DNA from: Eledone cirrhosa | Lineage: Eukaryota | Direction of reading: 5' to 3' | NCBI GenBank assembly: GCA_964016885.1 | Contig: CAXHJY010000481.1 | Location: forward strand, 6,735 to 70,734 | DNA: 64,000 nt | Shown: in pieces, positions 59,869 through 60,897 of the stretch | How the letters are laid out: each line of letters opens with the position of its first letter | Position numbering within the stretch: the first letter of the stretch is position 1 | Notes under the pieces: generated by a model | Told to the model about the DNA's origin: nothing | Database searches by the model: none | Seen by the model: the letters and a program-made list of their open reading frames with translations, nothing else | Position numbers and translations under genes: made by a program

Positions 59869-60897
59869 ATGGGACACCTCTGGAAAAAACATCTAAAAAC
59901 CAGAAAATTCACTTTCTGGAATATGATAAAAAACCTCAACAAAGCTGGAATTTACCAAAAATGGATTAACTCAACACCGATAGTTTTACCACGTAAATTC
60001 CAAATAAAGCATATTACAAACGAACCTGAACCAGAAAGAAAACTCCGTGAACAAATGTCACTCAACAGGATAAACATGGAAATAGAACTCCTAAAATTAA
60101 GGGCCACCTCAAACGAGCAAGAGTATAAGGATACTGATAAAAATATGGAGGAAGAATGCACTAAAAAGGCCGAGGGAACAACCCTACAAAATTTAATCAA
60201 ATCGTGGAAACAGGACTGCGAGAATGCAGAAACTATTTCCCTTAAACGGTGGGAAAAATCCGAAAACTGGTTCCTCAAATATGAAGAAGACTTTAAAAGG
60301 ACGCACCAAACAGGTAACCCCTTTATAAAGCATTTGAACATAACAAGAACTACAACAGACACATTTACACCACCAAACCCAACACACACTAACCACAGGC
60401 ACATCCCCCACCAACACAAACCAAATACGGCCAACTACACCAAAAGAAACACACCCAACCACCACAACACAGGTTTCCGTAGAAATGCCCCCTACATAAA
60501 CCAACGACGAAATAACATAGATCCAACTCACAACACACACACCACATTCCTCAGAAGAAATCCACCCAGGCCACTTGAAATCACAACAGAACTTACCCAC
60601 AACCACACCAGACATCACCCTCAATCCAACAAAAGACAACCCCCCAGCCTCAACACTCTGTACCACAGAAATAACGCACCCAGACCACATGAACCAACAA
60701 CAGAACCCTTGCTCATCAACAACCACAACACATACCACCCCCACCATCACATTCACCCTCATGAAACAACAAGCTACAGACCCACACGCAACAGACCAAC
60801 AAAATATAATCACACACAAAACTACATTCCTTTTTTAGGGAAAAGCCTAAAATACCAGGATACTCGATGGCCCCCCCTCAGGAGAAACCAAAAATAA
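59869..60897 (+). CDS. PLE ORF1: helical/coiled-coil N-half + H/N/T/R/P-rich low-complexity C-half (342 aa; probably 5'-truncated)
   Basis: [17 protein letters not shown]...PIVLPRKFQ...EIELLKLR...SWKQDCE..E..SLKRWEK..W; ATG lies at the inversion junction; overlaps the RT frame over 60810-60897. Confidence 0.8.

Follow-up and report, generated by a model that had tools for sequence, protein, structure and literature searches.

The Penelope-like element (PLE) that closes the analysed window (the whole 64,000-nt stretch of Eledone cirrhosa DNA) is divided into two overlapping reading frames that meet at a U_UUU_UUA heptamer. This junction is a real feature, very probably a programmed -1 ribosomal frameshift, and is general to a clade of endonuclease-bearing (EN+) PLEs with a Zn-finger linker. 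The frames, the phase of the heptamer, its fixation among copies and its conservation across the clade are direct observations. On this interpretation, a minority of the ribosomes translating ORF1 would slip by -1 at the heptamer and yield a 1170-aa ORF1-RT-GIY-YIG fusion, and most would stop 19 codons past it and free a 421-aa helical ORF1 protein. The slip would be ribosomal, would be the main route to the reverse transcriptase (RT) and may keep ORF1, as a structural or RNA-binding product, in gag-pol-like excess over the enzyme. Such a gag-pol-like two-ORF strategy had been proposed in an earlier, sequence-only reading of the window, and the comparative tests described below (copies, families, other sources) lend it support. 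The parts of the element are as follows.

59022..59867, minus strand: inverted pseudo-LTR (pLTR), a microsatellite-rich copy of the element's 3' end, abutting the 5'-truncated element
59265..59303, minus strand: minimal hammerhead-ribozyme-like motif within the inverted pLTR (motif scan only)
59866-64000, plus strand: Penelope-like element, closing the window; the window's element represents family A
59866..60897, plus strand: what remains of ORF1 (codons 79/80-421; intact protein 421 aa)
60807..60809, plus strand: TAA bounding ORF2 upstream
60810..63143, plus strand: ORF2, intact, 777 aa stop-to-stop
60831..60837, plus strand: slippery heptamer U_UUU_UUA in the ORF1 phase, 21 nt past the ORF2 opening and 19 codons before the ORF1 stop
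60846..60859, plus strand: weak hairpin, 8 nt 3' of the heptamer, 3 bp in the window copy
60867..60869, plus strand: in-frame ATG of ORF2, in family A only (GTG in family B, none in C and D)
60891, 60951, 61263, 61944 and 62082, plus strand: ORF2 motifs KIINLS, GLKFTPTP, KEADKG, GTAMG and YLDD, respectively
60895..60897, plus strand: ORF1 stop codon TAA
62739-62765, plus strand: ORF2 Zn-finger linker C-x4-C-x2-C (CGRTNCGTC)
62856-62900, plus strand: ORF2 GIY-YIG-type motif (motif reading)
63144..64000, plus strand: 3' UTR and start of the 3' pLTR, reaching the contig end

The codons of ORF1 (CCT 60829, TTT 60832, TTA 60835, GGG 60838, stop TAA 60895-60897) place the heptamer T TTT TTA at 60831-60837 in the X_XXY_YYZ phase, as had been claimed from the sequence alone, and the ORF coordinates confirm the accompanying claims that the RT frame lies in -1 relative to ORF1 and is bounded by the TAA at 60807-60809. 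The overlap of the two frames, previously put at about 90 nt, measures 88 nt and includes the heptamer. The earlier figure of 1091 aa for the fusion and its transframe reading are right for the window copy, but the free ORF1 product of 342 aa has to be corrected to 421 aa, because the window copy is 5'-truncated at 59866, where it adjoins the inverted pLTR, and the ATG at 59869 is the internal Met80 of intact ORF1. The full 5' end is present in 17 of 30 sister loci; in intact sister copies ORF1 has 421 aa and the predicted ORF1-RT-GIY-YIG fusion 1170 aa.

Canonical EN+ PLEs are the sister group of telomerase RT, and by its RT, linker and GIY-YIG motifs the window element is best classified as an endonuclease-bearing Zn-linker, Neptune-like PLE. 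ORF2 matches Pfam RVT_1 and contains the N-terminal GxKF and DKG motifs and the catalytic YxDD of a PLE-type RT, and motifs at 62856-63002 correspond to a GIY-YIG endonuclease at the C terminus, with CCHH residues. GIY-YIG was not reported in a direct Pfam scan of ORF2; many ORF2 homologues carry PF01541, the GIY-YIG family. The earlier label of Neptune-like is borne out as far as the Zn-finger linker C-x(2-5)-C-x2-C is concerned, though the assignment draws on this linker and not on a tree with named references. The pseudo-LTRs, the inverted 5' copy and the hammerhead motif (pattern only) also correspond to EN+ PLEs. Over 855 nt the inverted pLTR matches the 3' end of a sister copy (L065) at 96.5%, and its hammerhead-like motif has the U3-A8 core variant, a 5-bp helix II and a palindromic CCGG helix III. 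The U3-A8 variant is on record for PLE hammerheads (PMC4209133). A search against Rfam gave no hammerhead match, solely microsatellite-driven miRNA noise. An Athena/Coprina-type PLE lacking the endonuclease was considered and ruled out by the presence of GIY-YIG and by the interior location of the copies, which occur on many contigs (versus the telomeric positions of Athena/Coprina).

Two further observations concern these terminal sequences. In the pLTR (63144-64000 of the window, and L065), approximately 600 nt resemble (TA)n/(CA)n microsatellites and are copied along with the element, so that part of the host microsatellite load travels inside the PLE. In addition, a second minimal hammerhead-like motif with a U3-A8 core and a CCGG palindrome is found in the window at 2290 (+), 30573 (+) and 30488 (-), with two of the three copies facing each other; these are probably remnants of another PLE family.

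The family of the window element (family A) is young, 40 scored junction matches being approximately 100% identical. A flank pattern search of the same genome identified 190 copies that match the junction flanks, and among the 100 of these matches that were listed the T run is T6 in 94, carries a substitution in five and is T5 in one, with no run of T7 or longer (7-10 nt) in any of the 190. The earlier concern that sister copies might have one continuous frame, the break being a private indel in the T run, is not borne out by these counts. Four genomic family-A copies (L061-L064) are in frame, as might be expected if a once single ORF had been broken by a disabling mutation or by an error of assembly; however, they differ mutually and owe their frame to differing insertions in the downstream C run rather than the T run. 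Moreover, a short-read contig from an independent run (X3, depth 985) spans the junction without a gap, and the arrangement recurs in all 12 families or loci of the clade. A disabled single ORF can thus be practically discounted, having already been refuted by the recurrence among copies, families and clade. A fifth long-frame copy is a 5' microsatellite extension (five were fetched; two further long frames were seen). The within-family N/S counts of distinct variant codons (9/8 in the ORF1 domain, 9/2 in its tail, 38/18 in ORF2) are too few to inform.

Slippage of a polymerase on the T6 run, whether RNA polymerase II or the RT of the element, could also add one U to part of the templates and produce an in-frame mRNA with no ribosomal shift. 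Slippage by RT is on record at the U6A motif of HIV (PMC5737442), and a single contig of run X4 over the slip site (L005:1631) has seven T, at a depth of 4.9 that leaves room for an error. Nevertheless, the lack of genomic T7 copies indicates that U-inserted RNAs are not being copied into DNA, and the T run keeps its tandem-slip phase, neither lengthening nor drifting. Since the relative L100 and a distant G_GGU_UUY group, both described below, also obey the rules of ribosomal heptamers, polymerase slippage appears to be a very improbable source of the fusion. The depth pattern of run X4 is unlike that of the other runs.

Three further families in the same genome (B, C and D), whose ORF1 is 28-53% identical, keep the in-phase heptamer with the RT in -1. 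Family B, with ORF1 about 51% and RT start about 55% identical to family A, retains TTTTTTAG in 30/30 loci; in 27 of the 30 the frame scores as -1 and the heptamer falls within a 91-100 nt overlap, and the remaining three have upstream indels or a stop. Seven copies of family C (ORF1 53%, RT start 60% identical to A) include the junction, of which five are intact with a 70-nt overlap and two have a broken ORF1. Family D, which was selected by an RT query independently of the junction, is the most divergent (ORF1 28%, ORF2 47% identical to A); its junction was found in 28 of 30 loci, all 28 in -1 phase. The heptamer at these 28 junctions is TTTTTTA in 26 (followed by A in 25 and by T in one), TTTTTTT in one and TATTTTA in one.

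Outside this genome, 123 loci were fetched by RT motifs and scanned by ORF2 alignment, the ORF1 alignment being too divergent for this purpose. Both an ORF1 profile match and an RT start were present in six of the 123, and in all six the RT is in -1 and the heptamer in phase, U_UUU_UUA in five and U_UUU_UUG in one. The proposed check on relatives thus turned out in favour of the junction, the -1 overlap and an in-phase canonical heptamer being kept in families B-D and in eight loci from other sources. In the RT tree (FastTree, 46 selected unnamed rows, with broken or short RTs and family D left out), families A-C group with L093, L094, L097, L169, L107 and L100 in one clade with support 100. 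Within this clade, L107 has U_UUU_UUG, and L100 has A_AAA_AAC six nt past the ORF2 opening and without a T run, which by its sequence is a swap to another canonical heptamer. Both A_AAA_AAC and G_GGU_UUU are among the shiftiest eukaryotic heptamers, and U_UUU_UUA is the HIV frameshift site (PMC5009743). ORF2 opens merely 0-6 nt before the heptamer in L094, L097, L169 and L100, and in L097 the whole ORF1/ORF2 overlap amounts to 16 nt.

These heptamers are beyond chance, because a canonical one lies within the overlap in 12/12 families or loci of the clade, compared with a background of 0/2942 upstream in-phase positions for TTTTTTN and 23/2942 for any XXXYYYZ (ten ORF1s). Two characteristics of a programmed -1 frameshift site were therefore found, namely an in-phase heptamer in an overlap with ORF2 in -1, and its conservation over divergent relatives. 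Counting against a frameshift is L131, a broken locus outside the tree and weakly placed in the clade, which has C_AAA_AAC alone. Bivalves and Octopus bimaculoides are the sources of the named protein relatives, and no relative was found in the viral contigs searched. The animal-type retroelements L169-L215 sit in records titled as bacterial MAGs, likely as host contamination.

At the protein level, the ORF1 profile matched 708 homologous clusters at 50% identity. Among 71 full-length ORF1 homologues (>=330 aa; proteins <50% identical were compared), FL is present within the last 60 residues in 60, versus 7/71 and 9/71 in control windows. Codons for K, E, Q, M and W cannot end in T, and none of the 60 proteins has one of these residues before FL (background 22.5%; P=2e-7, which is overstated as the rows are related). 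On the other side, 11/71 homologues are without FL, including two with FF and three with FR near the end. None of the best 150 of the 708 ORF1 matches is longer than 609 aa, none of the best 120 ORF2 matches is longer than 803 aa (lengths up to 1360 aa were searched), and an ORF1-alignment search for fused forms of 875-2495 aa returned none, which is weak evidence. In P0017, P0052 and P0053, F-R stands at the expected place of F-L and could be a UUU_CGN motif, the +1 shift type of influenza PA-X (PMC3498833). The predicted proteins P0151 and P0133 join ORF1 to the RT past the FL site, with the conserved N-terminal RT motif deleted, and their gene models likely contain false introns that bridge the frameshift.

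In the AlphaFold model of intact ORF1, residues 11-223 form five long helices and the tail after them is disordered, with pLDDT of 96-99 over about 71-230; the helical domain is predicted to reach about residue 230, and the disordered tail is rich in T/N/P/H/R. The coiled-coil character ascribed to ORF1 earlier would rest on this all-helical prediction, and an oligomer goes beyond it. With the model as query, Foldseek gave no PDB match at E<=0.001; searches of ORF1 against Pfam and the ESM Atlas gave nothing usable, and Pfam on 63 ORF1s gave six single-member matches and nothing else. From its position and composition, we infer that ORF1 may have a structural or RNA-binding role.

The stretch ttttttag|g could alternatively serve as a 3' splice site, as the sequence-only reading had itself suggested, in which case the RT would be translated from spliced RNA and ORF1 from unspliced RNA. 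AG is next in families A, B and C and in five outside loci, introns are known to be retained in PLEs (PMC8557442), and in the related PLEs L111, L121, L124, L126 and L137 a pyrimidine tract and CAG precede the RT motif. However, the splice acceptor fails because family D (TTTTTTA then A) and three other loci, L169, L107 (TTTTTTG then T) and L100, are without AG. In 15/60 proteins AG is also excluded by the residue that follows FL (Y, F, W, P, L, H, N), the upstream 30 nt are merely 30-60% pyrimidine, and 9/10 loci have no strong donor in the phase needed for ORF2. Splicing is therefore extremely improbable as the route to the RT. Among the joints listed for the contigs of four runs none ends at the heptamer, a comparison that does not amount to a splice test.

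It is also conceivable that ORF2 is made separately, through termination-reinitiation or internal initiation near the ORF1 stop in a LINE-1-like manner, with the heptamer as a relic or a secondary route. Stop-start overlaps likewise produce a -1 frame. In family A the ATG at 60867 is in frame, 29 nt past the heptamer and 28 nt short of the ORF1 stop, and precedes KIINLS; family B has GTG in its place, and for several ORF2 homologues the called start lies a few residues ahead of the motif, where the codon may be GTG/TTG. A PLE group with mixed frames (L112-L132), moreover, has a Met within the first 2-22 codons of ORF2 and no heptamer. Yet only 1/12 families or loci has an ATG in front of the conserved (I/V)xN(L/M)S motif, and the ATG of family A, with T at -3, is preceded by 17 others. 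As separate synthesis also leaves both the conservation of the in-phase heptamer and the swap to A_AAA_AAC unexplained, it is very improbable as the main route, although reinitiation may contribute in places.

For the programmed -1 frameshift, the preferred reading, a 3' stem-loop or pseudoknot 5-9 nt downstream would be usual but is not universal, and here the hairpins are weak and unconserved. The absence of a strong downstream hairpin, remarked on previously, agrees with three downstream stretches of the window copy (z +0.88 to +1.38) and with 70-nt folds 3' of the heptamer in families A, B and C (z +1.19, -0.66 and +0.31, respectively). The 3' region of family D folds weakly, z<-3 was obtained in two of the ten clade loci folded (L094 and L097), and no pseudoknot beyond shuffles was detected in 15 sites. 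The weak hairpin at 60846..60859 becomes 4 bp in the 22/30 copies with G at 60849 and is not conserved in C and D. Frameshifting without a folded 3' element has been described in Semliki Forest virus (PMC5009743). As a working guess, slippage in these PLEs may operate at a low level without such an element, with help in some lineages from ribosome queuing behind the ORF1 stop.

This last possibility is raised by the distance from the heptamer to the ORF1 stop, which is exactly 10 codons in 20/60 proteins and shorter in none of the 60; with DNA rows added, the 10-codon spacing is found in 21/77. Because it is clustered in one sub-clade (eight changes on a quick ORF1 tree, at least four forced, against a shuffled mean of 18.5), the spacing appears to be largely one inherited state, and it would have been kept without sequence conservation, as the 10 spacer residues share no sequence across lineages. 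Queued eukaryotic ribosomes are spaced roughly 10 codons apart, and the spacing suggests that termination supplies the stimulus: while one ribosome terminates at the ORF1 stop, 10 codons 3', it would act as a roadblock and cause the trailing ribosome to slip. By analogy, in a synthetic E. coli system a stop-stalled ribosome promotes a -1 shift of the trailing ribosome, peaking 8-10 codons upstream of a slow stop (PMC6815119), and the position of the zero-frame stop matters in SARS-CoV-2 frameshifting by another proposed route (PMC8168617). Against it, the spacing is 19, 20 and 23 codons in families A, B and D, the 19 of family A being about two ribosome lengths, and a single codon in L097. A collision-stimulated -1 frameshift without RNA structure, natural to the whole clade of EN+ PLEs, is thus a tentative and rather unlikely proposition. 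If it were true, RT output would scale with the ribosome load on ORF1, and the fixed 10-codon spacing lets natural collision stimulation of eukaryotic frameshifting be tested directly.

Several known systems may be compared with this arrangement. As in retroviral and LTR-retrotransposon gag-pol, the same heptamers (HIV-1 U_UUU_UUA; MMTV-type A_AAA_AAC) and phase rule are found, and the structural ORF precedes the polymerase; unlike gag-pol, the PLE is without a stable 3' stem-loop, protease, RNase H or integrase, and its ORF1 has no Pfam or solved-structure match. With Semliki Forest virus it shares a slippery site without demonstrable structure, and with the E. coli stop-stalled stimulators (8-10 codons) the exact 10-codon spacing of the 21/77 ORF1s, but the latter are synthetic and bacterial, and family A is spaced at 19 codons.

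Among PLEs, the Neptune (and Nematis) clade of EN+ elements was reportedly treated by Arkhipova in 2006. The window element resembles its members in the RT GxKF and DKG motifs, the C-x(2-5)-C-x2-C linker, the C-terminal GIY-YIG, the pseudo-LTRs with an inverted 5' copy, the hammerhead motif and the (TA)n context. In contrast to Neptune/Nematis, described as single-ORF, it has a 421-aa ORF1 of no known family that overlaps the RT in -1 at the heptamer, and two overlapping ORFs are found throughout the 12 families or loci. The Neptune/Nematis clade has been described (PMC8557442, PMC3846280), canonical EN+ PLEs being called single-ORF (Craig et al. 2021, PMC8557442), and the legend of Fig. 1 in the latter paper states, without naming a clade, that PLE ORF1 is sometimes frameshift-separated, with a pseudoknot. 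Also reported, in passages that mention no frameshift, are esterases of Neptune-like PLEs from fish and molluscs (PMC5408684) and, for a Neptune element of killifish, a short ORF1 without overlap (10.1101/2025.05.22.655539). The earlier statement that EN+ PLEs are usually single-ORF therefore holds for how they are described, but extra ORFs in Neptune-like PLEs and an ORF1 with a frameshift in PLEs are already in print. The two-ORF frameshift PLEs of that figure are probably Athena/Terminon elements. The window clade is like them, by description, in an upstream helical/coiled-coil-type ORF1 linked to the RT by a frameshift; unlike Athena, which has no endonuclease, it possesses one and shows no pseudoknot. 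The literature search turned up no paper that describes a slippery site of the -1 type for an EN+ PLE, although a prior mention is possible, Repbase being outside the search, and the word 'Penelope' does not occur in the portion of a frameshifting review that was covered (PMC5009743).

An abundant clade of EN+ PLEs, elements annotated as single-ORF, carries an overlooked ORF1 family of approximately 400 aa (708 clusters, no Pfam) together with a probable gag-pol-like recoding signal. The true enzyme would be the 1170-aa fusion, which changes the protein to be expressed for the biochemistry of PLE retrotransposition, and the intact young copies provide a ready reporter system.

Other PLE groups met in the survey differ at this position. 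A distant Zn-linker group (L147-L154, L162-L165, L168; e.g. L147:3641-3690) has an unrelated ORF1 of 360-430 aa that ends in G-F-(R/H)-stop, with a G_GGU_UUY heptamer in -1 phase that the stop follows after 0-1 codon; a hairpin-like motif, GGACAGGC...GC, is conserved, and this would be a second frameshift arrangement and perhaps an independent one. The heptamers of L146 and L167 are degenerate, and a consensus fold of the G_GGU_UUY group gave 3 pairs on an uncorrected alignment. In the five PLEs with a pyrimidine tract and CAG named above, the RT ORF opens directly after this sequence, suggesting an intron just ahead of the RT. Finally, the Zn-linker PLEs L112-L132 (e.g. L115, L119, L120, L128) have an upstream ORF of 460-715 aa, the RT being in +1 or -1; they lack a heptamer, have a Met close to the ORF2 start and are candidates for termination-reinitiation.
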